From contig JBAXOD010000002.1 in the NCBI GenBank assembly GCA_037133435.1, forward strand, positions 23,545 to 87,544: DNA of 64,000 nucleotides. Direction: 5' to 3'. This document shows positions 1,993-54,785 of the stretch, piece by piece. Made by a program: the position numbers and the translations under genes. Under the pieces are notes generated by a model. It saw only the letters and a program-made list of their open reading frames with translations. It had not been told where the DNA came from and did no database searches. The stretch's first letter is position 1; each line of letters opens with the position of its first letter. Origin of the DNA: Candidatus Moraniibacteriota bacterium. GTDB lineage: Bacteria > Patescibacteriota > Minisyncoccia > Moranbacterales > UBA1568.

Positions 1993-2339
1993 TTCTCAGT
2001 ATCTCTCTCAAATCTCATGTCGAGCTGTACATTCGAAAATTTCGATAGGAGCGCCAACCAGAGGTTGGTCACCCTCTCAGTAAAAAACCATGAAAAAGGA
2101 GAGAAGGCTACTAACTAACCTGACGAGTTTTGAATGGTTTGCCCGCCCTCGACGATCGCTTGGCGAGACGGTCGGGGTCCGCCCGAATCGCTACGCAATC
2201 GTTGCGGACGGGCCTGCCCGCATTGCTAGGCAAAGCATTGCAGGCGGGTAGCCGAAATTTTCGGATTTCAGCCGGCAAGCGGATTTTTTGGCTTATATGT
2301 GCGTTGAGATTTGAGAGAGACACTAAAGGAAGCAAGGGG

Positions 2340-2997: not shown

Positions 2998-3750
2998 CTA
3001 TCTGTTCTCCGAAACCGTTCCCGACCCGGTCAGTCCCGCGAACGGATCGATATGGATGTTCTCCGCCGCGATACCGATACCGAGGAGAAGCGCTTTCATG
3101 GCATCCGCGAATGCCGGTGCGCCTATCACATAATAGAGCGATTCCCGCCATTCTGGCAAGTATTTCCCTATCATTTCCGCACTGATACGGCCTCGTTCCT
3201 CGCCCGGCTCGGTTGAAGGTCCGGTCTCGGCCGACAAGGTGTACACGTAGGTGAAGTCCGGAAGAATGATCGCCCGGATTTCCGAATGGAATGGCACGTC
3301 CTTTTGAAAACGGTTCGACGATATCAGGACGTATTTTCTCGTGTCGTTTTTCGCGACCGCTTCCAGAAGCATCGACCGTGCCGGGGCCATACCGACGCCT
3401 CCCGACAGGATCGCTATCGGTCGTGAATCCCCTTCCGGAACGGTCGCGTTTCCGAGCGGAGCACTTACCGAGATTTCCTCGCCCGCCCTGAGGTCCCACA
3501 TGGTCTTCTTGAAACCCGTCATGCCCTCGCGCATCACGAATACCAGCTCGGCCTCGCTTGGCGCGGACGCAAGCGAAAGCGGGCGCATCCCGGCACGGAC
3601 GTCCGGCTCGACAAGCCGCTCAGCCGGCACCCGAAGCATCACATACTGCCCGGCACGATACGAGTACCCTTCCGGCTTGGAAAAAAAGAATGCGAGCGTG
3701 CGATCGGCGGTCTCCTCGACCCGAATCAACGTGATGGGATAGAATTCCAT
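2998..3750 (-). CDS. FNR-like oxidoreductase, FAD/NAD(P)-binding domain protein
   Basis: RPLSLAS (RxYS-type FAD motif) and GGVGMAP (GGxGxxP NAD(P) motif); 250 aa. Confidence 0.6.
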   Translation of the reverse strand: MEFYPITLIRVEETADRTLAFFFSKPEGYSYRAGQYVMLRVPAERLVEPDVRAGMRPLSLASAPSEAELVFVMREGMTGFKKTMWDLRAGEEISVSAPLGNATVPEGDSRPIAILSGGVGMAPARSMLLEAVAKNDTRKYVLISSNRFQKDVPFHSEIRAIILPDFTYVYTLSAETGPSTEPGEERGRISAEMIGKYLPEWRESLYYVIGAPAFADAMKALLLGIGIAAENIHIDPFAGLTGSGTVSENR

Positions 3751-3856
3751 ACTCCTAATTCTTTATTCTTTATTCATCATCTAACGATTGTCGAGGCGCT
3801 CGGAATCGCTCAGGCATTCGCTGGGCGTCCGGCGTATGTCGGACGAACCAGGGCGG

Positions 3857-4025
3857 GTCTACCTCCCCTGCGGAGCCACGACCGTCCACTGGATGGTCGG
3901 ACACGAATCTTGTCGGGGCACCCGGAATCGGACCGGGACTACCTCCCCTTCGGGGCCACGACCGTCCATCGGGACGGTCGGATAACGTTCTTGTCGGGGC
4001 ACCCGGAATCGGACCGGGACTACCT
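3857..4025. repeat. Two tandem ~84-bp units, each = tRNA-Pro 3' half (cttgtcggggcacccggaatcggaccgggactacct) plus a GC hairpin spacer
   Basis: Exact 36-bp copies at 3909-3944 and 3990-4025; flanking spacers ccacgaccgtcca...ggtcgga also repeated. Confidence 0.7.
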
Positions 4026-4064
4026 GCTCCCAAAGCAGACGTACTACCACTATACTATGCCCCG
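3994..4064 (-). tRNA. tRNA-Pro (anticodon TGG)
   Basis: Manual fold of reverse complement: acceptor CGGGGCA/TGCCCCG, anticodon stem TCTGC/GCAGG, loop TTTGGGA, T-arm CCCGG-TCCGATT-CCGGG. Confidence 0.8.
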
Positions 4065-4090
4065 ACTATTACCCCGACAATAACGCTATC

Positions 4091-4126
4091 CCCAAAGCAG
4101 ACGTACTACCACTATACTATGCCCCG
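4091..4126 (-). pseudogene. Orphan duplicate of tRNA-Pro(TGG) 5' half (through anticodon loop)
   Basis: cccaaagcagacgtactaccactatactatgccccg identical to 4029-4064 but lacks 3' half. Confidence 0.65.
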
Positions 4127-4369
4127 CCAAATAATTTCAATTTTCTCTTTACGGACGAGGCTCGCCCTGATGGGCGACCCGACAATGAACTCGTCCCCGA
4201 AGCAGGCGTACTACTGACATTCATATCTCTTCCCAGTCTACGGACTCTCCGGGAAAAAGCAATCCCGCCTCCTGAAAGAGGCGGGACGGCCCTATCTTTT
4301 ATTTCGTGCAGTACGGAACCCGCCAATGGAAAACCGTCCCTCCGACGGAATCCCGCGAATACTCGCGTA

Positions 4370-6753: not shown

Positions 6754-8385
6754 GTGAAAAGGCATCATGGACCGTCACGCATAAGAAACAAAACTAAGAA
6801 TAAGCTTGTGTACCGACCAATCGTGCTCGTCGTCTTGGACGGCTGGGGACTCAGCAATGTCACGCAGGGAAATCCCATCCGCGAAGCGAATCTTCCGACG
6901 ATAAAGAAGTTCAACGAATTTTATCCGCTCGCCGCATTGCAAGCGTCCGGCATTTCGGTGGGTCTCCCCTGGAACGTGGTCGGCAACAGCGAGGTCGGCC
7001 ACATGACCATAGGTGCCGGCCGAGTCATCTACCAGAATCTTCCCCGGATTGCGCTCTCCATACAGGACGGCAGTTTTTCCAAGAACCCGGCATTGCTCGC
7101 GGCGGCCGAGAACGCCACGCGCAACGGGGGCAACTTCCATGTCATGGGTCTCGTCAGTTCCGGATCCGTCCACTCAAGCAAGGAACACCTGTTCGCCATC
7201 CTCAAGTTCGCCCAGGAAGCGGGTCTCGGCGACCGGACATTCGTCCATGTCTTTACCGACGGACGCGATTCCTCCCCGACTGAAGGGGTGATTCAGATCC
7301 GTGAGCTCGAACGGCATATGAAACTTCTCGGCACCGGGAAGATCGCCTCCATTATCGGACGGAACTGGGCGATGGACCGAAACAACAACTGGGACCGCAT
7401 CGAAAAGGCGTATCTCATGATGACCGAAGGCAAGGGCGAACACATCACCGACCCGTCACTGTATCTCGAACAGTCCTACGCGCGAGACGTGACGGATGAA
7501 TATGTCGAACCGGCGGTGCTGTGCGACGAACAGGGCGCGCCAATCGGCCTCGTCGGCAAGGGCGATTCCATCATGTTCTTCAACTTCCGCGAAGATCGTG
7601 CCCGGGAAATCACCAAGGCGTTCACCCTTCCGGGATTCTCCAATTTCAAACGATCGAAGTTCCCGGACATCTATTTCGTCACCATGACGGAATACGAGCG
7701 GGATCTGCCCGTTTCCGGCATCGCCTTTCCTCCCGAAAAAGTCGTCAACGATCTCGGGGAAATACTTTCGGCTTCGGGAAAGAAGCAGCTCCGTGTCGCG
7801 GAAACGGAAAAGTACGCGCACGTGACCTATTTCTTCAACGGAGGAAAAGAGCGCGCCTACCCCGAAGAAGACCGCATACTCATCCCGTCGCCGAACGTAT
7901 CGCGTTTCGACGAGGTCCCAGAAATGAGCTCGGACGAGGTGACGGACACCCTGCTCAAGGCGATCGAGGATGAGACGTATGATTTCATCCTGGCCAACTA
8001 CGCGAGTCCGGACATGGTCGCGCATACCGGCAACGAAGAGGCGACCATCCGAGCCGTCGAATCGATCGATCACAACCTCTCGATTCTGGTCCCCGCCATC
8101 CTCAAGGCCGGTGGAGCGCTCTTTATCACCGCCGATCATGGGAACGCCGAGGAGCTGAAGAAATCCGCTACCGGGGAAGTGGACACGGAACACTCCATCA
8201 ATCCCGTCCCACTGTGGTTCATCACGCCGGACAATCATCGCGAAAAGGACCAGGAGACGCAGACAAAGGAACAGAACGAGGTTCGCGGTCTGCTCTCCGA
8301 TATCGCGCCGACCATACTCGATGTTATGAAGTTGCCGCAACCGCCGGAAATGAACGGTTCAAGCCTCCTTCAGACACTGAAATGA
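6754..8385 (+). CDS. gpmI: 2,3-bisphosphoglycerate-independent phosphoglycerate mutase
   Basis: VLDGWGL N-terminal motif, 543 aa, iPGM domain architecture. Confidence 0.85.
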   Translation: MKRHHGPSRIRNKTKNKLVYRPIVLVVLDGWGLSNVTQGNPIREANLPTIKKFNEFYPLAALQASGISVGLPWNVVGNSEVGHMTIGAGRVIYQNLPRIALSIQDGSFSKNPALLAAAENATRNGGNFHVMGLVSSGSVHSSKEHLFAILKFAQEAGLGDRTFVHVFTDGRDSSPTEGVIQIRELERHMKLLGTGKIASIIGRNWAMDRNNNWDRIEKAYLMMTEGKGEHITDPSLYLEQSYARDVTDEYVEPAVLCDEQGAPIGLVGKGDSIMFFNFREDRAREITKAFTLPGFSNFKRSKFPDIYFVTMTEYERDLPVSGIAFPPEKVVNDLGEILSASGKKQLRVAETEKYAHVTYFFNGGKERAYPEEDRILIPSPNVSRFDEVPEMSSDEVTDTLLKAIEDETYDFILANYASPDMVAHTGNEEATIRAVESIDHNLSILVPAILKAGGALFITADHGNAEELKKSATGEVDTEHSINPVPLWFITPDNHREKDQETQTKEQNEVRGLLSDIAPTILDVMKLPQPPEMNGSSLLQTLK

Positions 8386-11989: not shown

Positions 11990-12150
11990 TTTGCAGGTTC
12001 ATGGTACAACCGTAAACCTAACTGTCACTATCTTCGATCTAACCGCAACTTTACCGATGATAAACCATGTGGTTCAGGGTACAACCCTGAACCTGCGGGA
12101 ACATGCCTGTTATAAATTCTCCCTTATAAAAGCCATAAATAAGATGGTTC
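11990..12150. repeat. Hairpin repeat family copy a (inverted orientation): ggttcagggtacaaccctgaacc + tcccttataaaagcca
   Basis: Reverse complement matches cgcaggttcagggttgtaccctgaaccac at 40243 and 49647. Confidence 0.6.
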
Positions 12151-18994: not shown

Positions 18995-19648
18995 CTATTT
19001 TGTCACGAGAAACGCGTAATGATACGCCCCGACCGGGATATCGCGGATTTCCGTAAAGCCGATCTTTTCCAAAATCTGTTTCATATCCCCCGCGGAAATC
19101 CGTTTCCCCGTTTCCGGTCCGACCTTCCCCTCCGTTTCCGGATTCCATTCCATGATCAGTCCGTGTCCGCCGGGATGAAGCACCCGCGAGACCTCTCGCA
19201 AGATCACATCCTTCATATCGTTCTGAAAGAGCATGTCCTTGACGATGACCCAATCCACGCTCGCCGGAGCAAGCCCCGAACCGTTCTCCCGTTCCAGGTT
19301 GGCCCGCTTCGTCGTGATATTCCTGAGACCCAAGAGCTTGGCCTGACTCTCCATCGCCTCGAGCGCGGCCGGCAGGACGTCGAGCGCGATAACCTGCCCT
19401 TCTTCGCCGACCGCTCTCGAAAATTCCACGGAAAAATATCCTGCGCCGCACCCGAAATCGGCCACGGTCCCTTTCGGTGCGACCGGTAACGCCGCCACGA
19501 CAGCCTTCGGATCCACGAATGTCGGAGAAGAGAACATACTCGTTTCTATATCGGTATTATATTTGCCTGATTCCAATAAATATAGTACAACAATTGAAGG
19601 CGAAAAGAAAGAAGTTCCGGAAAGCTTCTGGAGCCGTTCGAGCTTCAT
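18995..19648 (-). CDS. Class I SAM-dependent methyltransferase
   Basis: Motif I VADFGCGAGYFS, motif post-I ALDV, 217 aa. Confidence 0.65.
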   Translation of the reverse strand: MKLERLQKLSGTSFFSPSIVVLYLLESGKYNTDIETSMFSSPTFVDPKAVVAALPVAPKGTVADFGCGAGYFSVEFSRAVGEEGQVIALDVLPAALEAMESQAKLLGLRNITTKRANLERENGSGLAPASVDWVIVKDMLFQNDMKDVILREVSRVLHPGGHGLIMEWNPETEGKVGPETGKRISAGDMKQILEKIGFTEIRDIPVGAYHYAFLVTK

Positions 19649-19744
19649 TAGCCTCCAAAGCTTCGAAAGAGAAGCTTCGAGAACCTTGGCAAGAGGTCGG
19701 GAACACGGTTAAAATGAGGAGCCGTTCCCGTTCAATGGCACTTG

Positions 19745-19899
19745 GAGCCTATCCGTTAGGAACATACCTCCTGCGCCTAAAATCTTCGGCGTACACGCGC
19801 GTACCCCTTGTCGTCTTATCCAGATAGGGCTCCGCGGGTTACCCGCCTTTCCACTCGAAGCTTATACGGCTCGTGACGGAGACCCTGACGGATAGGCTC
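19745..19899 (-). mobile_element. 155-bp MITE-like element copy 1 (inverted relative to copies 2 and 3)
   Basis: Terminal inverted repeats gagcctatccgttagg / cctgacggataggctc; >85% identical to 22579-22735 and 32646-32800 after reverse complement. Confidence 0.65.
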
Positions 19900-19987
19900 T
19901 TATTCTCCTCCGAGTGTTCCCTGTTTACTGTTTACTGTTTACTGTTCATTGTTGTCAGTTGTCAGTGGTTAGTTATCAATCAAATAC

Positions 19988-20049
19988 GGAGAGATGACCG
20001 AGTGGTTGAAGGTACCGCTCTCGAAAAGCGGCAGGCCCGAAAGGGCCTC
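19988..20049 (+). pseudogene. 62-nt 5' fragment of tRNA-Ser(CGA) (acceptor through first half of T-loop), exact duplicate of 20391-20452
   Basis: ggagagatgaccgagtggttgaaggtaccgctctcgaaaagcggcaggcccgaaagggcctcgagggttcg identical in both copies; diverges inside T-loop. Confidence 0.75.
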
Positions 20050-20122
20050 GAGGGTTCGTCCGGCATACGCCGGACGCCCCGCGCATGCGGGGCGAATCCC
20101 ACATTTAAGGAGAAGGCTGCAT

Positions 20123-20386
20123 ATGTTCTATGTCTATATCCTCAGAAGCAAGAAAGACAATGACTTCTATATCGGGTCAACCGGAGATTTAAAAAGAAGA
20201 ATGAAAGAACATAATCGCGGAGTAGTGGAATCAACAAGACACAGACGACCTCTTGAACTCCTATGCTATGAAGCGTACAACTATAAAGAAGAAGCTCAAG
20301 CGAGAGAGCGTTTTCTAAAAAGCAGTGACGGAAAGAAAGATTTACGGAAACGATTGACTCGCAGTTTGGAAAAAAAGGAAAAATAA
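20123..20386 (+). CDS. Small GIY-YIG nuclease-domain protein (YhbQ/UPF0213-like)
   Basis: MFYVYILRSKKDNDFYIGSTGDLKRRMKEHN = GIY-YIG motif; AAGGAG SD 8 nt upstream of ATG at 20123; 87 aa. Confidence 0.75.
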   Translation: MFYVYILRSKKDNDFYIGSTGDLKRRMKEHNRGVVESTRHRRPLELLCYEAYNYKEEAQARERFLKSSDGKKDLRKRLTRSLEKKEK

Positions 20387-20390
20387 GTAC

Positions 20391-20477
20391 GGAGAGATGA
20401 CCGAGTGGTTGAAGGTACCGCTCTCGAAAAGCGGCAGGCCCGAAAGGGCCTCGAGGGTTCGAATCCCTCTCTCTCCT
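20391..20477 (+). tRNA. tRNA-Ser (anticodon CGA)
   Basis: Acceptor GGAGAGA/TCTCTCC, anticodon loop CTCGAAA, long variable arm CAGGCCCGAAAGGGCCTC, T-arm GAGGG-TTCGAAT-CCCTC. Confidence 0.85.
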
Positions 20478-20486
20478 CACTGAAAG

Positions 20487-20833: not shown

Positions 20834-21030
20834 TGTGTTGTGTTAATGGATGGATTCGAAATTGCAGGCATCTCAGGAAATCCGGCATTTCATTTGTCGC
20901 ATAGCGTCTGTCTTTCCACCGAAATGGATTGCGTGTCAAAGGTACGGATGATACAGTAAGGATGTTTTCGGATAATTCGGAAGATACCGAACAGTACCAT
21001 TCGAAGAATCAGACAGCCAAACGCTCTCAT

Positions 21031-22593
21031 ATGAGGATATCTTTGGAAAGTATTTTCTATCGCGTCATCCTTCCTTTCATGTTTCTTGAGGGATTTCTCC
21101 TGAGAATCGGCAATCTCAGAAAAGGTTTCTGGATCGACGAGTATCTCACCATCGAAACCGCACAGAAACTGACGTTTTTCAATCATACTGACACGGTCGG
21201 TCTCAACCCTTATTACGTCGGCCTCCGTCTGGTCGCATACCTCTTCGGTACCGACGAGACCGCCGTACGGATCATTTCCGTCCTGTTCGGTCTTGCGTCG
21301 GCATTCATCCTTTTCCTGATCGGAAAAAAATATTTTCACGAACGCGTCGGGCTCATCTCATCCTGTATCTTTCTGCTTACTCCCTTAGGCATATCGCTCG
21401 GTCAGGAAGTACGGCCATATTCCATGCTCCTTTTCCTTTCCCTGTGCCAACTATTTTTCTTTCTGGAAATATTGCAGTCCGTCTCCGAAGGTAAGCGGGT
21501 GAAAAATATCCGATTCATGCACCTCTCCGTCCTTACCCTGCTGATCCTGTTCATCCACCTGTCATCGGTATTATTCCTCGTCTCCGAAATGATCGTCCTT
21601 TCGTTCATAACGATCATCGAAAAACGGTGGCCGACGGACGTCTTCAAATATTATCTCGCTTGTTTGTTCCCGATGTTCGCGTTCTTCGCCTGGTTCTATC
21701 GTGACATCCTTACAAAACTCGGATTTATCGTTTCGGACCGGAATTACATTACCGTCTATTCAAACAGCGGACGCTCTTTCGCCGATGTGATCGTTTTCAT
21801 CCAGAATATCTCAACGGGACTCATCCCGGAGAAGCCAAAGGAGAGCCTGCTGGTATTCCTCCTTGCGCTCATTCTGATCGGAGCATCCATCGGCATTTGC
21901 CATTCTTTCATACGACGCGCCACGATCGTAAACGCCCTCTTTGGAATAACGATTCTCCGGATCTGCATCGGGCTGTCGATGCATGACTTCATTCCGAGAC
22001 ACGCGTTCATATTGACCCCTCTTTTTTCACTCTTTCTCGGAATATCCCTCTACAACCTTTCAAAAGTTCGCAGGGTTCCAAAGGTGGTCATTTTTTGCGT
22101 GTACGGATTCTTCATTCTGTCCCTCGCATATCTTTCACTGATTTCGCAGAAAGCCGAGAAAGCCGATCCGGGGAGACAATGGGGGTCGGTCGCCGATTTC
22201 GTCGAACGAAACGCCGGACCGGAAAAAGCGGTCATCGTGGCAGTCCCCTATCTGAAAGGGATATTCACCCATTATTATCATGGAACGACTCCGATCATCA
22301 CTATGGATGATTACAAGGAAAAATCACGAAATACCCTCATAGAGAACAATGAAATCGGTGTCTCGTTCATAAATCAAGAGCTGACCGATGCGTTGATCGG
22401 CAAGAGTATCGGGTTTCGAGAAATTCTGGTCGTCAAAGACGTTATCGCCTTAGATTTGAGCGATGTGGACAAACGCTTCGATACGGCTTTAGCAAGTCGT
22501 TTCATCCGGATCGATACAACCTGTTTCCCGGCTTCAGCGAAAATCCTGTGCGTCGAACGCTATCGAAGAGCCGACCAAGAGCCTATCCGTTAG
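21031..22593 (+). CDS. GT-C fold membrane glycosyltransferase (ArnT/PMT-like)
   Basis: ~12 TM, GFWIDE in first loop, N-terminal hydrophobic domain followed by C-terminal soluble domain; start at MRISLES. Confidence 0.5.
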   Translation: MRISLESIFYRVILPFMFLEGFLLRIGNLRKGFWIDEYLTIETAQKLTFFNHTDTVGLNPYYVGLRLVAYLFGTDETAVRIISVLFGLASAFILFLIGKKYFHERVGLISSCIFLLTPLGISLGQEVRPYSMLLFLSLCQLFFFLEILQSVSEGKRVKNIRFMHLSVLTLLILFIHLSSVLFLVSEMIVLSFITIIEKRWPTDVFKYYLACLFPMFAFFAWFYRDILTKLGFIVSDRNYITVYSNSGRSFADVIVFIQNISTGLIPEKPKESLLVFLLALILIGASIGICHSFIRRATIVNALFGITILRICIGLSMHDFIPRHAFILTPLFSLFLGISLYNLSKVRRVPKVVIFCVYGFFILSLAYLSLISQKAEKADPGRQWGSVADFVERNAGPEKAVIVAVPYLKGIFTHYYHGTTPIITMDDYKEKSRNTLIENNEIGVSFINQELTDALIGKSIGFREILVVKDVIALDLSDVDKRFDTALASRFIRIDTTCFPASAKILCVERYRRADQEPIR

Positions 22594-22735
22594 GGTCTCC
22601 GTCACGAGCCGTACGATCTTCGAGCGGAAAGGCGGGTAACCAGCGGATCCCTCTCCGTAGATACGGCGACAAGGGGTACGCGCGTGTACGCCGAAGATCA
22701 TAGGCGCAGGAGGTATGTTCCTAACGGATAGGCTC
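22579..22735 (+). mobile_element. 155-bp MITE-like element copy 2
   Basis: gagcctatccgttagg...cctaacggataggctc; overlaps stop codon of upstream gene. Confidence 0.65.
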
Positions 22736-22940
22736 TCAGTAGATGATAACAAACCCCCGAGTCAATCGATTCGCGATCCATCTTGTCACTCCGGTTTCAT
22801 TCCGATATCGTGATTGTCTGCGTCGAGAGGCTCCGGGAGCATTCCATGGTATCATCAGTGGGATAGGAATACCGGTAACCGGATATCGGAACAAGACAAA
22901 AAATCATATACCGAACGGCAAAAAACCACAGACAGAACCT

Positions 22941-30865: not shown

Positions 30866-32640
30866 ACGAGAACGAATCGGAAACCGTACCGAAAGTGGCC
30901 ATTCCGCCGACCATCACCGTGAAGGCGTTTTCCGATACCCTCGGACTGCCCGTCGCGCAGGTAATGACGGAACTCATGAAAAACGGCATCTTCGCGACCA
31001 TCAACGAGGAGATCGATTTCGATACCGCGAGCATCATCGCGACCGACCTCGGCATGGAGGCGGTCCCGGCCATCGAATCCGGCGATGCTGATAAGCCGCT
31101 CTCGCTCGAGGACATGCTTGACATCTGCGCGAAAGAAAAGAACTCGGACAAGCGCCTCGAGCCACGCGCACCGATCGTCACGATTCTCGGACATGTCGAC
31201 CACGGCAAGACCACGCTCCTCGACACGATCCGCAAGGCGAGCGTCGCGACCGGGGAAGCGGGTGGCATCACACAACATCTCGGCACCTATCAGGTCAAGA
31301 AGCGCGGCAAACTCATCACGTTCATCGACACCCCCGGACACGAGGCGTTTTCCGCGATGCGCAAGCGCGGCGTCTCTATCGCCGACATCGCCATCCTCGT
31401 CGTCGCGGCCGATGACGGCGTCCAGAAGCAGACCAAGGAAGTCATCACGTACCTCAAGGAGCGCGGACTCCCCATCATCGTGGCCATCAACAAGATCGAC
31501 AAGCCGGACGCGAATATCATGCGCATCAAGCAGGATCTTGCCGAGAATGACATCCTCATCGAAGAATGGGGCGGGAAAATCCTGTGCTCCGAGATCAGCG
31601 CGAAACAGAACGTCGGCATCGATTCACTGCTCGAAAACATCCTCCTCGTCAACGAGGTGGAAGAATTTTCCGCCGACGCGAAGCGCAGCGGACTCGCGGT
31701 CATCCTCGAATCGCACCTCGACAAGCAGAAGGGCCCAGTCGCCACGAGCCTGGTCCGGACCGGCACCCTCAAGGTCGGTCAGGACGTGATCGCCGGATCG
31801 GTCTTCGGCCGTATCCGTCATATGGAAAACTACGCCGGCAAGACCGTCGAATCCGCCGGTCCCTCGACGCCGGTCATCATCTACGGCTTCAGCGATACTC
31901 CGAAGGTGAACGACGTCGTTTCGGTCGCCAGCGGCAAGGCATCGGCACGGGTCCGTTCCGAACGGGCCCAGACGACCGCTAAGACCCTTATCAGGGCCAA
32001 ATCCGAGGAAGAAGGTGTCGAAGGTCCGAAGCGGCTTTCCTTCGTCCTCAAGGCGGATGTGGAAGGCTCGCTCGAGGCGATCGAACAGATTCTCGGTACC
32101 ATCGTCCACGACGAAGTCGCGCTCGAGGAGATTTCCTCCGGGGTCGGAGCCATCACCGAATCCGACGTGAAGATGGCGGAGAGCGCGGGGGCGGTCATCT
32201 TCGGATTCAACGTGGAACCGACCGCGGTCGCCCGACGCATGGCCGAAAAGAGCGGCACGGCGATCGAGAGCTTCGGAATCATTTATAAACTCGTCGACCG
32301 GGCGAAGGAGCGGCTGTCCGAGTTATTGCCGCCGGAAACGATACGCACCGATCTCGGCACCCTGTCCGTCCTCGCGGTCTTCAAGACCGGCAAACGCGAC
32401 CAGATCGTCGGCGGACGCGTCGGTAATGGAAAACTCTTCAAAGGTACGAAAGTCGACATCCGCCGCAAGGACGAGGTCGTCGGCACCGGTATCATCGTCA
32501 ATCTCCAGCAGAACAAACAGAACGTCGAGGAGGTCGGGCAGGGAAACGAATGTGGCGTCGTCTTCGAAGGCAATGCGAAAATCGCGGATGGGGATACGCT
32601 TCTCGTCTATCGCGAGGAAACGAAGCGCCGGACGCTCTAG
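30862..32640 (+). CDS. infB: Translation initiation factor IF-2 (short form)
   Basis: [12 protein letters not shown] (G1), DTPGHEAF (G3), NKID (G4), C-terminal beta-barrels; 592 aa. Confidence 0.9.
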
Positions 32641-32645
32641 ACTTA

Positions 32646-32800
32646 GAGCCTATCCGTCAGGGTCTCCGTCACGAGCCGTACGAGCTTCGAGCGAAAAGGC
32701 GGGTAACTTGCGGAGCCCTATCGAGATAAGGCGACAAGGGGTACGCGCGTGTACGCCGAAGATCATAGGCGCAGGAGGTATGTTCCTAACGGATAGGCTC
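32646..32800 (+). mobile_element. 155-bp MITE-like element copy 3
   Basis: gagcctatccgtcagg...cctaacggataggctc immediately after infB stop. Confidence 0.65.
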
Positions 32801-33015
32801 TTACATATAAGCATACCACGATTGCTTCTCGGTCAATTTTGCATTTTTTTCTGACACATGCTATCTGCACCGTATAATCCGTGGTAAATTGTTAGTTGTA
32901 CGCTTCTTGTTCAATGCTTTCTTCCCGCTCGTCCTTGCAAGCGGGTCCGCGCACGGAGATGTCGCGGATTATCTGTTGTAGGTTATCAGTGGTAAGTCGT
33001 TAGTCTTGCTTTCCT

Positions 33016-34530
33016 ATGGATTCTTCCGTCATCCCCGCACCGGTCCTCTCCGTCCTCGATGCCCTGAAATATGCCGGGTATCAGGGGCAGATCGTCGGCG
33101 GATGCGCGCGCGACCTGTTTCTCGGACGCGAACCGAAGGACTGGGATATCACGACCGATGCGAAACCGGAGGAGACGCTTTCCGTCTTCCCGGACAGTTT
33201 CTATGAGAACGATTTCGGGACGGTCGGCGTAAAAGTCGAGCCGTTCCACAAGGAAGGCCGTCCGGACCGCGAACACGACGTGATAGAAGTGACGACCTAT
33301 CGGACCGAATCCGGCTATTCGGACATGCGTCGGCCTGATCAGGTCGAATTCGTCCTATCGCTGTCCGAAGACCTTTCCCGGCGCGATTTCACGATGAACG
33401 CGATCGCGCTTCAGGTCAACGATCCGTCCCCGTCGCATACGGACCGGACCATCGACGTCATCGATCCGTTCCATGGCCAGGAAGACATCAACCGAAAGAT
33501 CATCCGGACGGTCGGCAACGCCGAACAACGCTTCGGCGAGGATGCACTGCGCATGATGCGGGCGATACGTTTCTCCTCCGAACTGGGCTCACCGGCTACG
33601 GAAGAAAGCGGATGGACGATCGAGGAACCGACGCTTGCGGCGATAGGAAAACACTCGGAACTGATCGCTCACGTCTCGCAGGAACGCATCCGCGACGAAT
33701 TATCGCGGATTATCCTCTCGGAGCGTCCGGCTGAAGGGGTCGAGCTGCTCCGGAGTGTCGGGTTGCTGAGATATATCATTCCAGAACTCGAGGAAGGCGT
33801 GGGTATCGGACAAAACCTCCATCATGCCCTTACCGTATACGAGCACAATCTCGGTGCGCTGCGATACTGCCCGTCGCGCGTGCTCGAAGTCAGGCTTGCG
33901 GCGCTGCTGCACGATGTCGGCAAACCCCGATCGAAGCGCGGCGACGGCTACAAGTCGACGTTCTACAATCACGACCATATCGGGGCCCGGATGACCAAGG
34001 TGATACTCCAAAGGCTTCGCTACCCCGTGGCCGTCATCGACCGGGTCACCCTGCTCGTGGACAACCATCTCTTCTATTACAATGTTGGCGAAGTGACCGA
34101 AGCCTCGGTTCGTCGGCTCATCCGACGCGTCGGCCTCGGGAACATGCGCGATCTTATGTCCGTCCGGATCGCGGATCGGCTCGGGTCGGGCGTCCCCAAA
34201 GCCAAACCGTATAAGTTGCGTCACTTGGAATACATGATCGAGAAGGTCTCAAACGACCCGGTCTCCGTCAAAATGCTCAAGATAAACGGCACGGATCTCA
34301 TGAACGACCTCAAAATGACGCCCGGACCGAAGATCGGCGCCGTGCTCGATGTCCTCCTTTCCGAAGTGATCGAAGATCCGTCACGTAACATCCGCGAGTC
34401 ACTCCTGGTACGCGCGAAAGAACTCTTCGAAGAGGATCTTTCTTCCCTTCGCGACCGCGCGAAAGACGTCATCGAGGAAAAACGCGAACAAGACGATAAG
34501 GGAATCAAAAACCGTCACAAGGTGGCGTAG
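33016..34530 (+). CDS. cca: CCA-adding tRNA nucleotidyltransferase with HD domain
   Basis: GGCARDLFLGREPKDWDITTD Pol-beta NTase motif; LLHDVGKP HD motif; 504 aa. Confidence 0.85.
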   Translation: MDSSVIPAPVLSVLDALKYAGYQGQIVGGCARDLFLGREPKDWDITTDAKPEETLSVFPDSFYENDFGTVGVKVEPFHKEGRPDREHDVIEVTTYRTESGYSDMRRPDQVEFVLSLSEDLSRRDFTMNAIALQVNDPSPSHTDRTIDVIDPFHGQEDINRKIIRTVGNAEQRFGEDALRMMRAIRFSSELGSPATEESGWTIEEPTLAAIGKHSELIAHVSQERIRDELSRIILSERPAEGVELLRSVGLLRYIIPELEEGVGIGQNLHHALTVYEHNLGALRYCPSRVLEVRLAALLHDVGKPRSKRGDGYKSTFYNHDHIGARMTKVILQRLRYPVAVIDRVTLLVDNHLFYYNVGEVTEASVRRLIRRVGLGNMRDLMSVRIADRLGSGVPKAKPYKLRHLEYMIEKVSNDPVSVKMLKINGTDLMNDLKMTPGPKIGAVLDVLLSEVIEDPSRNIRESLLVRAKELFEEDLSSLRDRAKDVIEEKREQDDKGIKNRHKVA

Positions 34531-35382: not shown

Positions 35383-35472
35383 GCCGAGGTGGCGCCCGCC
35401 CGCAACGCTTCGCGTAGCGATGCGGGCAGGAAACTGGTAGACGCACCAGGTTTAGGTCCTGGCGGGAGCAAG
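35383..35472 (+). pseudogene. Partial tRNA-Leu copy: acceptor+D-stem, 36-nt GC hairpin inserted in D-loop, anticodon arm, no T-arm
   Basis: gccgaggtggcg[cccgcccgcaacgcttcgcgtagcgatgcgggcagg]aaactggtagacgcaccaggtttaggtcctggcgggagcaag vs intact copy 12 nt downstream. Confidence 0.7.
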
Positions 35473-35483
35473 AAACGTATATT

Positions 35484-35570
35484 GCCGAGGTGGCGAAATT
35501 GGTAGACGCACCAGGTTTAGGTCCTGGCGGGAGCAATCCCTTGGGAGTTCGAGTCTCCCCTTCGGCACCA
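35484..35570 (+). tRNA. tRNA-Leu (anticodon TAG), CCA encoded
   Basis: Acceptor GCCGAGG, anticodon loop TTTAGGT, long variable arm, T-arm GGGAG-TTCGAGT-CTCCC, 3' ACCA. Confidence 0.85.
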
Positions 35571-40229: not shown

Positions 40230-40385
40230 AGACCGTCTTTACGCAGGTTCAGGGTTGTACCCTGAACCACGGGGTTTACAACCGATACCGAAGCTCTGAT
40301 ATGGAGAACCGACCTCCGGTAAGGTTCTGACACAGGGAGAGAAACATTTCGGAGCAGGGTACAACATTGCTCCAGTAAAGAATCG
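40230..40385 (+). repeat. Hairpin repeat family copy b: cgcaggttcagggttgtaccctgaaccac and ggagcagggtacaacattgctcc
   Basis: Matches 12071-12093 (inverted) and 49647-49673 / 49821-49843. Confidence 0.6.
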
Positions 40386-49479: not shown

Positions 49480-49860
49480 AAAATAAATTCTCACTTTTCC
49501 CTTATAAAAGCCACAAACGAAACATTTTCCCGATCAAATTTTCGGCCCGTAAGGTCATTTCGCGGGCTCAGGACTGCGCCCAGCACCGTACGGTACTGAG
49601 TCGTACCTCGTACCAGACGGTACGGGGTTGTACTCTAAACCTTTTCGCAGGTTCAGGGTTATACCCTGAACCACATCGTTTACGGCCGATGATGTGATTT
49701 CGACTTGTCAAACTATACCCTGCCGAGGCTAAGTCTTGGCAAACCAGCCTCCGCTCTAGCTTCGGCTTGGCAAGCCAGACTCCGCTCTAGCTTCGGCCTG
49801 GAAGGGAGAAAGAATGTTTCGAAGCAGGGTGCAACCCTGCTCCTGCAATAAAATTACATC
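49480..49860 (+). repeat. Hairpin repeat family copy c plus internal tandem 30-bp repeat (ggcaaaccagcctccgctctagcttcggc x2)
   Basis: tcccttataaaagccacaaa, cgcaggttcagggttataccctgaaccac, gaagcagggtgcaaccctgctcc. Confidence 0.6.
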
Positions 49861-49937
49861 TGATACGCGATAGCGTAGCAAATGTAACTTTTCGAAAATA
49901 TCTCAAATTTGATAATACTGCTACAGGTTGCCAATCC

Positions 49938-50150
49938 ATCCCCGTTCCCCTTTCAAAATTCGAAATTCAAAATTGCCCTGACCTCGTCCCCAACCCGTTA
50001 ACTCGTTAACCCGTGAACCGAATAACATCCCCTCCCGTTCCCCTTTCAAAATTCGAAATTCAAAATTCAAAATTGCTTTGACCTCGTTCCCAACACGTTA
50101 ACTCGTTAACCCGTGAACCGAATAACATCCCCTCCCGTTCCCGTTGTAAG
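49938..50150 (+). repeat. Two and a fraction tandem ~91-100-bp direct repeats containing ttcaaaattcgaaattcaaaattgc and cgttaactcgttaacccgtgaacc
   Basis: Units 49938-50028 and 50029-50128; third copy of the AT-rich core at 51346-51410 on the other side of the recombinase gene. Confidence 0.7.
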
Positions 50151-50193
50151 TTGTTAGGAGTAAGTTGTGAGTGGTAAGTTGTCAGTCTGTCCC

Positions 50194-51177
50194 TCATTTC
50201 TTCCGTTTCTTCGCATGAAATTCCTCATGAATCTCGCGGAGCCGTTCGTTCGTCACATGGGTATACACCTGGGTAGTGGTAATGGAAGAATGGCCCAGCA
50301 TCGCCTGCACGGAACGGATGTCCGCCCCGTTTTGCAACAGATCGGTCGCGAAGGAGTGCCTCAGCGTGTGTGGATGGACATCCTTGACGATGCCGGCCTT
50401 GGCGGCGTATTTCTTCACCAATCGCTGTATACTCCGTTCGGTAAGCCGCATTCCGGCGTGTCCCTGCCGTTCCTTGGGCGCGCGTTTCGACTTGGGGATG
50501 GCGATAAAGAGCGCCTTGTCCATATCGCTTCGCTTTTCCAAATATCGCATAAGCGAATCTCGTGCGTCATCGGAGAGGAACACTACGCGGAGCTTGGATC
50601 CCTTGCCGCGCACGCTGAATTCACCCTTTTTCAGGTTCACCGAATCGCGATCAAGCGAAGTGAGCTCGGAAACGCGCAATCCTGCGGAAAACAGCAGTTC
50701 GAGGATCGCCCGGTCACGCAGAGCGCGAAGCGACCCGCCCGAAGCGGCAGCAAGGAGCCGTTCCACCTCGTCGAGCTCGAGAAACCCTACCTCGCGCGTC
50801 GGCGCCTTGCCGACCGCGATCTTCTCGGCCGGTACGGTATATTCGTCTTCGCGGGCCAGGTACTTGAGAAACGAACGAAGCACCACGATATGATATGTCT
50901 GGGTCGACTTACGGAGCGTTTCGCCACGCTCGTTGGTGACACGATTAAGCGAGAGACGGTATTCCCGGACACGTTCTGCCGTGATATCCGCCGGACTCTT
51001 GATGCCGCTCATTTCGAAAAACTTCCACAACGAACGCGTATAACTCTCAAGCGTCCGCGGAGAACGGTTCAGCTCTATCTCGAGATGTTCGAGAAACCGC
51101 TTCGCGAGCGCTTCGATCCGAGTCTCTGATTTCGGTGTCCCTGCATTCATATCCATTAAGTATACATGAAAAGTCAC
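50194..51177 (-). CDS. Tyrosine site-specific recombinase (XerC/XerD/phage-integrase family)
   Basis: C-terminal HTLRHSFATDLLQNGADIRSVQAMLGHSSITTTQVYTHV with catalytic R..H..R..Y. Confidence 0.85.
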   Translation of the reverse strand: MTFHVYLMDMNAGTPKSETRIEALAKRFLEHLEIELNRSPRTLESYTRSLWKFFEMSGIKSPADITAERVREYRLSLNRVTNERGETLRKSTQTYHIVVLRSFLKYLAREDEYTVPAEKIAVGKAPTREVGFLELDEVERLLAAASGGSLRALRDRAILELLFSAGLRVSELTSLDRDSVNLKKGEFSVRGKGSKLRVVFLSDDARDSLMRYLEKRSDMDKALFIAIPKSKRAPKERQGHAGMRLTERSIQRLVKKYAAKAGIVKDVHPHTLRHSFATDLLQNGADIRSVQAMLGHSSITTTQVYTHVTNERLREIHEEFHAKKRKK

Positions 51178-51545
51178 TTGTAAGGTGCGAGAAGTCGGTT
51201 CCCCATCCCCGCTCCCCGCTCCCTTCCTGCTCCACTGCCTGAGGGGAGCTCCCGTGGTTTTGCACGGGTGAGGGGTGGGAGAAGTTGCCCATCCTTATCC
51301 CCGCTCCTCACTTCTCACTCCTCATTCCTGTCCCCACTCCCCGCTCCCGTTCCCGTCCCCATTTCAAAATTCGAAATTCAAAATTCAAAATTGCTGAGAC
51401 CCTGTTCCTTATTATCTGCTCAGTGTTAACTGAAGTTATCCCTTATTCAAGGGTAAAGCTACCTATTTCACCATCAATTTTCGTTGACATTGCCCCCCTG
51501 CGGAAGCTATACTCGATTCCATATAACACCTTAGGGCGCCGGCGT

Positions 51546-53766: not shown

Positions 53767-54104
53767 CAATCATTATTTTCAAAAGTTGCGAGTGAGTGCC
53801 CCGTACTTTCTTCCTGTTCCCCTGCCAGAGGAGGATTATCTGACAACAAGGAAAATGATCCGTTGAGTCTTCGAAACTGAAGGTTGGGAGAAATTCCCCG
53901 CATCCTTGACTTGCCACGGCCTCCGCGGCTTCGCAAAGACCGAAGGTATCACGCTCCCGTTCCCTGCTATCTGCTCAATGTTATCTGCTCCCTGATCCCT
54001 GACTCATGTTCCCTGTCTCATGTTATCTGTTCTCTGTTGTCAGTAGTTAGTTGTAAGTTGTCAGTGGTTAGTTGTCAGTTATAGGTTATCAGTCGTCAAT
54101 TCTT

Positions 54105-54785
54105 CTACAACACCTCCACGGTCTTCGGTTTGCGCGCCGTGAAAGAATACAGCCGCGCCGGGCGACTCTGTCCCGACTGGCGGACTTTCCCTGTTTCTTT
54201 GACAAGTTCGATATCCAAGATCTTCTTGCGAAAATTCCGCTTGTCGAGCTCGTGCCCGAGAATGATCTCGTAGACGGTCTGCAGTTCGGTCAGGGTGAAT
54301 TCCTTGGGCAGGAGTCCGTACGCGATATTGGAATATCCGATTTTGCTTCTGAGCCGATCGACGCCGACTGAGACGATCTTCGCGTGATCGAACGCCATCT
54401 TCGGCAAATGCGCCGTATCGTGCCAGGCGATATCGGAATAATATTCGATGGTCGAGGGAAGGCACCGGTCGCTGTTCACGAGCGCGAAATATGCCGTCGA
54501 GACACTCCGCCCACGAACATCACGATCCACACCTCCAAACGTGAATAACTGTTCCAGATAAATATCATCGACACCGGCCTTTTCCGAAAGGATTCGTTCC
54601 GCGGCCTGATCGAGGGATTCATCCATACGGACCAATCCGCCGGGCAACGCCCATTTCCCTTCGTAGGGACCGCTGCCGATCCGGATAAGCAACACCCTGA
54701 GCGCTCCGTCGATGACGGAAAAAATGGCGGTGTCGACCGCGATCAGTATCGACTGGCCGAGTGGCGGCGTGACATTTTTTTTCAT
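54105..54785 (-). CDS. nrtR: NrtR-type Nudix-related transcriptional regulator of NAD metabolism
   Basis: N-terminal degenerate Nudix domain (GKWALPGGLVRMDESLDQAAERILSEKAG) plus C-terminal winged-helix region; flanked by nadM/nadV. Confidence 0.7.
   Translation of the reverse strand: MKKNVTPPLGQSILIAVDTAIFSVIDGALRVLLIRIGSGPYEGKWALPGGLVRMDESLDQAAERILSEKAGVDDIYLEQLFTFGGVDRDVRGRSVSTAYFALVNSDRCLPSTIEYYSDIAWHDTAHLPKMAFDHAKIVSVGVDRLRSKIGYSNIAYGLLPKEFTLTELQTVYEIILGHELDKRNFRKKILDIELVKETGKVRQSGQSRPARLYSFTARKPKTVEVL

Follow-up and report, generated by a model that had tools for sequence, protein, structure and literature searches.

A family of short hairpin-forming repeats in Moranbacteria-like candidate-phyla-radiation genomes, probably non-autonomous transposons of the IS5/PIF-Harbinger type

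Three repeats found in the window (the whole stretch of 64,000 nucleotides that was analysed here) belong to a family of 153-159 bp elements, which we consider, with a probability of about 85%, to be non-autonomous DNA transposons (MITEs) of Moranbacteria-like candidate-phyla-radiation genomes, mobilised in the manner of IS5 and PIF/Harbinger elements. As is typical of MITEs, they are shorter than ~0.8 kb and devoid of apparent coding capacity, they carry terminal inverted repeats, they are flanked by target-site duplications and their copies lie at non-homologous loci. This MITE family appears to be undescribed, while the kind of element is an ordinary one.

Results

Three copies of the element in the window

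A reading made earlier from the sequence only had placed three copies, more than 85% identical to each other and bounded by 16-bp terminal inverted repeats, at the positions listed in Table 1. All three copies and their terminal repeats were confirmed, with a measured pairwise identity of 90-93% over 155-157 nt (mean column identity of 92% in a common orientation; 93% and 90% for the other two copies when compared with copy 2 by BLAST), and the similarity among them ends at the terminal repeats. The size of 155 bp that had been given for the element holds for copies 1 and 3, copy 2 being 157 bp long. The 16-mer GAGCCTATCCGTTAGG, with at most one mismatch, is found at exactly six sites in the window, which are both ends of all three copies. 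When up to three mismatches were accepted, the chance expectation was 0.27 sites and the observed number was reached in 0/100 shuffles; a seventh similar site with three mismatches, at 63700, is at chance level.

Table 1. Positions of the elements, of their flanking triplets and of an associated stop codon in the window, together with copies of a second family (type B).
Feature	Position	Strand	Remarks
MITE copy 1	19745-19899	-	155 bp; inverted relative to copies 2 and 3; 90% identity to copy 2
Copy 1, terminal repeats	19745-19760 and 19884-19899
Copy 1, left flank TTG	19742-19744		pairs with the right TTA as a decayed 3-bp target-site duplication (2/3 bases)
Copy 1, right flank TTA	19900-19902
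MITE copy 2	22579-22735	+	157 bp; ortholog at L013:2117-2273
Copy 2, left flank CAA (TGA in the ortholog, L013)	22576-22578		decayed duplication with TCA
Copy 2, right flank TCA	22736-22738
TAG stop of the PMT_2 glycosyltransferase ORF	22591-22593	+	within the left terminal repeat of copy 2
MITE copy 3	32646-32800	+	155 bp
Copy 3, left flank TTA	32643-32645		perfect target-site duplication
Copy 3, right flank TTA	32801-32803		perfect target-site duplication
Type-B copy in the window	1999-2323
Type-B copies elsewhere	L013:12443-12697; L020:319-572; L024:10305-10557; L027:4823-5075; L005, L008, L010, L011, L012

The same reading had described each copy as sitting directly after a stop codon, a description that suits the three copies to different degrees. 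Copy 1 is not behind a stop, since the methyltransferase next to it (18995-19648, identified with Pfam) is encoded on the minus strand: the copy sits 97 nt upstream of the start of this gene (19648), in the divergent gap that separates it from a tRNA-Ser/GIY-YIG module. For copy 2, the description was imprecise, as the element itself provides the stop of a PMT_2 (GT-C type) glycosyltransferase ORF (20929-22593), which enters it as Q-E-P-I-R, so that the last five residues and the stop of this protein come from the element. At the orthologous locus in L013, a metagenome contig, the glycosyltransferase ends with GAC TGA just before the element, where the window reads GAC CAA GAG CCT ATC CGT TAG. 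Copy 3 begins 5 nt past the TAG stop of infB (32638-32640) and ends 215 nt upstream of the gene for the CCA-adding enzyme.

Copy 2 and the L013 element are 92.4% identical, compared to 93.8% for their flanks over 3.5 kb of mostly coding DNA. Since an orthologous copy is present in L013, the insertion of copy 2 is an old one.

Family size and distribution

Species-representative genomes were scanned for both terminal repeats separated by a spacer of 105-135 nt, and an equivalent scan was done on metagenomes. The genome scan gave seven full copies, each on a separate contig of one metagenome-assembled genome (MAG), Candidatus Moranbacteria bacterium bin-413 (CAITOC01), in which BLAST also detected three truncated copies exactly at contig ends, and the metagenome scan gave 20 loci in the four JGI metagenomes Ga0209697, Ga0118677, Ga0209083 and Ga0194037. 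The search for genomic copy number that had been proposed from the three window copies thus yielded 30 further full copies (23 metagenomic and 7 from the MAG), making a total of 33 full copies from the window, the MAG and the metagenome contigs, which represent 19 distinct sequences in 22 distinct flanking contexts. The 16-bp ends GAGCCTATCCGTYAGG / CCTRACGGATAGGCTC were found on every copy and are near-invariant, compared to an identity of 83-99% in the interior: the right-hand terminal repeat alone is changed in two copies, and both terminal repeats are altered in concert in one variant (L024:8964-9122, CCCAATAGG / CCTATTGGG). One single 157-nt sequence was found without any difference at six unrelated sites, four of which are in one metagenome; such identical copies imply that a transposase was recently active in these organisms. 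The elements have no apparent coding capacity, and the only ORFs that cross one of them (19477-19827 and 32426-32854) are short.

The window presumably belongs to a Moranbacteria-like genome, since the family is common to it and to the MAG and since it matches L013 with 94% identity over 3.5 kb. Its strain is represented by short Logan contigs and by one ENA contig (111,776 bp); the Logan contigs start or stop inside the element. All three window copies are intergenic and two of them lie close behind genes, as one might expect if they were paralogous terminator regions; local segmental duplications or an assembly artefact might also bring similar sequences together. However, the family occupies 22 unrelated contexts in five independent datasets, the similarity stops exactly at the terminal repeats and target-site duplications flank the copies. 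As for an artefact, the element is present in independent assemblies (ENA, Logan, JGI and the GenBank MAG). We therefore regard all three of these explanations as practically negligible.

Target-site duplications and target motif

When all copies were oriented alike, the triplets flanking the element were perfect direct repeats at 18 of the 22 independent sites, with TTA at 11 and TAA at 7 of them, so that the target-site duplications for which the sequence-only reading had proposed a search do exist. These triplets are repeated in direct and not in inverted orientation, which shows that the terminal repeat does not extend into them. Two other ways to read the flanks were considered, a TA duplication of 2 bp and a terminal repeat of greater length, and both were ruled out, since the flanks are direct 3-bp repeats. 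Imperfect duplications (given in element orientation) were seen at s5 (TGA/TTA), at copy 1 of the window (w1, TAA/CAA), at s12 in L013 (TGA/TCA) and at its ortholog w2, which is copy 2 of the window (CAA/TCA). At these sites (s5, w1, s12/w2), one or two of the three positions agree, which is consistent with the decay of older insertions, and TAA is probably the ancestral flank triplet of copy 2, as the most parsimonious one.

The reconstructed target is the palindrome GAC-TWA-GTC. In the target logo, built from 21 of the 22 sites (the orthologous pair s12/w2 was entered once) and read against a background of ~25% per base, TWA is preceded by G at 12/21, A at 13/21 and C at 14/21 sites (positions -3 to -1), and followed by G at 15/21 (+1) and T at 13/21 (+2).

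Unoccupied CTWAG words were found 82 times in the ~330 kb examined, when ~250 were estimated by simple arithmetic from the TWA count and the base composition. Their rarity may come from their stop-codon content, from a general avoidance of TAG-containing words or from an avoidance of transposon targets.

Insertions on stop codons

The duplicated triplet overlaps a neighbouring stop codon (ORFs of at least 100 codons) at 10 of the 22 sites, either because it is itself a duplicated TAA or because its TA forms a TAG with the G that follows. By comparison, such an overlap concerns 9.3% of TWA triplets overall (p ~1e-5) and 14.6% of the unoccupied CTWAG words (p ~5e-4). As for the core of the target, CTAAG / CTTAG, one of its strands reads TAA and the other TAG. 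Since CTWAG holds a stop on each strand and since the duplication regenerates the stop, insertion on a stop codon is harmless, and copies abut gene ends because such harmless insertions survive in compact genomes. We infer that the enrichment at stops results from a target preference combined with purifying selection, and not from a recognition of stop codons as such.

Hairpin structure and covariation

Compared with its own reverse complement, the element shows 67-70% identity, and fold predictions gave, for each of the two strands, a hairpin that takes up nearly the whole element (-78.1 and -72.5 kcal/mol, z ~ -6). In an alignment of the 19 distinct sequences, 98% of the stem cells are paired. 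Covariation, for which the sequence-only reading had also suggested a check, was detected: five stem pairs are changed on both sides, compared to 1.3 +/- 0.6 in shuffled alignments (0/500 shuffles were as high) and 0-2 in slid controls. That reading had noted that several differences among the window copies fall in segments that pair; only one truly compensatory pair is found among these three copies (in copy 1, G-C to A-U), and the number of such pairs rose once copies from beyond the window joined the alignment. Two compensatory doubles are private, at columns 44/116 of L018 (C-G to U-A) and at columns 38/122 of window copy 1, and because these two are confined to single copies, they are not an artefact of subfamily structure.

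Conservation is no higher in the internal stem columns than in the unpaired ones, 24/66 and 25/57 of which are variable, respectively (p = 0.46). One-sided changes are of the G-U type at 11 sites and of the A-C type at 6 sites, a non-significant difference, and the covariation signal is strand-symmetric. In E. coli, the templated correction of quasi-palindromes can yield compensatory doubles without selection. In our reading, there is a weak maintenance of the hairpin, which may be due to selection or to hairpin-templated correction.

The sequence-only reading had proposed either a structured RNA or a hairpin-forming MITE. The second proposal was borne out, as additional copies, target-site duplications and some covariation were all found, and the first one is unsupported in the form of a strand-specific function: relative to the gene whose stop is touched, 6 elements are in sense and 5 in antisense orientation, no Rfam match was found and the stems are not extra-conserved. 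A strand-specific RNA was rejected on this balanced orientation and on the non-significant asymmetry between G-U and A-C types. Its function is unsupported because there is no orientation bias, no Rfam match (only tRNAs in the whole window at the gathering score; one chance match, with a best E = 1.9, for the element at E up to 10) and no U-tract after the stem, which is followed by TTATTC, TCAGTA and TTACAT at the three window copies. A scan for promoter and terminator consensus sequences between 19400 and 23000, a region that includes copies 1 and 2, found nothing at the elements.

One may then ask whether the element is a functional structured RNA or DNA hairpin that is kept by its host as a 3'-end stabiliser, a bidirectional terminator or a processing site, with transposition being responsible only for its original spread, making it a domesticated MITE. 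The strong fold on both strands, the nearly complete pairing of the stem, the excess of double-changed pairs and the two doubles that are private to single copies would fit with such a role, as would the many copies at gene 3' ends and the retention of the orthologous copy 2 since the genomes of the window and of L013 split. However, the elements are found in both orientations at similar frequencies, their stems are no more conserved than their unpaired positions, G-U-type changes are not in significant excess and the orthologous pair has diverged as fast as its flanks (92.4% against 93.8%); moreover, the stem has no U-tract, the terminator scan was empty at the elements, Rfam gave no match and quasi-palindrome correction could produce such doubles without any selection. 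We thus consider domestication to be rather unlikely, and a role of the hairpin at gene 3' ends to be possible but unsupported. Equally doubtful is a 'safe-harbour' MITE that would land on gene ends by its C-TWA-G preference and rebuild the stop that it splits, and whose hairpin, formed over its full length, would be under active maintenance after its recruitment to gene 3' ends, where it would serve, whichever way it points, as a terminator, a stabiliser or a processing site. To our knowledge, transcription-termination signals are poorly known in candidate-phyla-radiation bacteria.

A second MITE family next to the first

A second family (type B, Table 1) consists of elements of 219-325 bp with the terminal repeat GTATCTATCTCAAATCTC / GTATCTMTCTCAAATCTC (ends GTATCTMTCTCA) and with the same TTA/TAA duplication as the family reported here. 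Type-B elements adjoin the latter at three sites, where the TWA is shared. The likely reason for such adjacency is that a new C-TWA-G arises where an element end meets its duplication. In the spacer that follows infB in L013, a type-B element is found where the window has copy 3.

Transposition mechanism and search for a partner

In the mechanism that we propose, a transposase supplied in trans would bind the 16-bp terminal inverted repeats GAGCCTATCCGTYAGG and make staggered cuts, 3 nt apart, in the middle of the palindromic target GAC-TWA-GTC, after which gap repair would duplicate TWA on both sides of the element. DDE transposases act in this way in the IS5 family and in its eukaryotic relatives, the PIF/Harbinger elements, which mobilise Tourist-like MITEs. 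The imperfect palindrome, running over the whole length of the element, could form a hairpin in DNA or in RNA from either strand. Two features of IS5 and PIF/Harbinger transposition, the 3-bp TWA (TNA) duplication and the extended palindromic target, are found here, and the family resembles these groups by the length, sequence and palindromic context of its duplication and by its GAG termini, the only features from which this putative assignment was drawn.

Looking for an autonomous partner in the ~330 kb examined, we found no solitary terminal repeat and no element of 0.6-3 kb with these ends. A broader search of the same ~330 kb for elements of 60-3000 bp with 12-mer inverted repeats and TWA duplications turned up no insertion sequence, its only finds being the reported family and a single type-B copy. 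Among the 40 long ORFs of the window, Pfam searches identified no DDE transposase, the sole mobile-element-type enzymes being a tyrosine recombinase (50194-51177) and a small GIY-YIG protein (20123-20386). In viral contigs, the terminal repeat plus three bases gave one chance match, located inside an integrase gene. Several accepted families of bacterial MITEs are likewise without a known partner.

Empty sites were searched for by BLAST of the joined flanks against the ~330 kb of collected DNA, which gave no junction-spanning allele, and by exact-protein look-ups (infB, CCA-adding enzyme, methyltransferase and amine oxidase), which returned the same strain only, with the site occupied or the contigs broken at the element. 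In the syntenic L013, the reported family is absent after infB, and the spacer has diverged too far for an empty site to be delimited there. An apparent empty-site pair between L020 and L024 was discarded, as the two loci are not orthologous. Since no empty allele was found, mobility is deduced from the duplications and from the identical dispersed copies rather than seen directly.

That no transposase was identified leaves room for mobilisation by another family, such as IS630/Tc1-mariner with its TA targets, IS3 with its 3-bp duplications or IS30 with its 2-3 bp duplications, its palindromic targets and its targeting of element ends, of which the insertions beside the ends of another element are reminiscent. 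However, TTA...TTA and TAA...TAA are direct repeats of 3 bp and not 2-bp TA duplications, IS3 elements have TG...CA ends and no sequence-specific target when the family reported here has GAG...CTC ends and a strict TWA, and the IS30-like adjacency is explained by the element end and duplication recreating C-TWA-G. Mobilisation by one of these families is hence unlikely in our opinion.

Other repeats and modules

Several other repeats were observed in the same DNA. In the tRNA-Ser(CGA) region (19982-20478), the first 77 nt are duplicated with 99% identity (19982-20058 and 20385-20461). The upstream copy is broken in its T-loop (GGTTCG followed by TCCGGCATACGCCGGACG...), and hairpins and an 87-aa GIY-YIG gene (20123-20386; PF01541, E = 8.5e-18) lie between the two copies, so that the duplication looks like a small tRNA-associated GIY-YIG cassette. 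Two other partial 5' copies of tRNA-Ser(CGA), with a different 121-bp unit, are found at L013:1-330. Similarly, tRNA-Pro(TGG) (3993-4064, within 3800-4140, minus strand) has beside it a partial 5' copy (4091-4133), as well as two units of ~80 nt in tandem that each end in the 3' part of tRNA-Pro (3891-3944 and 3972-4025). In this region, the motif GGTTCGTCCGACATACGCCGGACG (3814-3849) matches, in inverted orientation and with 92% complementarity, the motif GGTTCGTCCGGCATACGCCGGACG by which the tRNA-Ser pseudo-copy is interrupted. A partial duplicate (35430-35471) also lies upstream of the tRNA-Leu at 35484 (region 35430-35570).

Tracts with a 7-nt period (GTTGTCA / GTTAGTT / GTAAGTT) were found at 19915-19981, 32961-33019, 50143-50187 and 53993-54108, just upstream of genes (tRNA-Ser, CCA-adding enzyme and others), and a similar tract precedes the type-B element of L013; they may represent a promoter-region motif specific to this lineage. 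The short hairpin repeat CGCAGGTTCAGGGTTRTACCCTGAACC is present in three copies, in both orientations (12052-12097, 40237-40287 and 49641-49690). The tyrosine recombinase (Phage_integrase, E = 6e-45) is flanked by direct repeats of 58-100 nt (49933-50138 and 51351-51408), and the whole region (49933-51408) may be an integrated or invertible module. Finally, a repeat of ~50-70 nt is common to MITE-bearing metagenome contigs (L020:2294-2359; L012:6202-6251, 7759-7833 and 3305-3339; L024:1147-1214 and 3091-3158).

Discussion

Relation to known elements

The family reported here resembles members of the IS5 family (IS1031 / IS427 / ISL2 subgroups), since the IS1031 subgroup in ISfinder has a 3-bp TNA duplication and GAG ends as well. 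The maize PIF element prefers CWCTTAGWG as a target, which has the core CTTAG in common with the TWA-centred palindrome described here; a literature search for this exact target string returned nothing. Tourist-like MITEs such as mPIF and mPing are also short and non-coding, with terminal inverted repeats and a 3-bp TTA/TAA duplication. Three-bp TAA/TTA duplications are characteristic of PIF/Harbinger elements and Tourist MITEs (PMC2836001, PMC2213677), and PIF/Harbinger groups phylogenetically with the bacterial IS5 family (PMC12730594). In contrast with these elements, the hosts here are candidate-phyla-radiation bacteria, and the palindrome extends over nearly the whole length of the element instead of the termini only. 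Membership in the Tourist/IS5 group is putative for a family known from non-coding copies that are without a partner transposase.

Correia elements of Neisseria (CREE/NEMIS) are similar in several ways, with ~100-155 bp, terminal inverted repeats, tens of copies or more, a mostly intergenic location near genes, hairpins in transcripts and no known autonomous partner in their host. They differ by their 26-bp terminal repeats, their TA duplication, their IHF site and promoter elements and their restriction to Neisseria, and they have no sequence similarity to the family described here, whose duplication is a 3-bp TWA. ERIC/IRU, the pneumococcal RUP/BOX/SPRITE repeats and the Rickettsia palindromic elements (RPEs) are also small interspersed palindromic repeats near or in genes, and have other sequences, hosts and duplications; RPEs lie in frame inside ORFs, when the elements described here lie on or just past stops. 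According to a review that cites the work on pneumococci, such small repeats cluster with each other or insert side by side (PMC10969869). Such clustering of RUP/BOX/SPRITE resembles the adjacency between the reported family and type B.

Implications

The mobile elements of candidate-phyla-radiation bacteria are poorly catalogued. A full-text literature search combining MITEs with the candidate phyla radiation or Parcubacteria returned no paper on such elements, nor are these phyla mentioned in a 2024 survey that covered the MITEs of 183,232 genomes. In practice, short-read assemblies of these small genomes break at the element, which also runs the risk of being taken for a terminator or a small RNA gene, and, as copy 2 illustrates, it can alter the end of a protein. 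More generally, this family offers a natural example of how a transposon can persist where genes are very densely packed: its target holds a stop codon on both strands, and its duplication puts the stop back.
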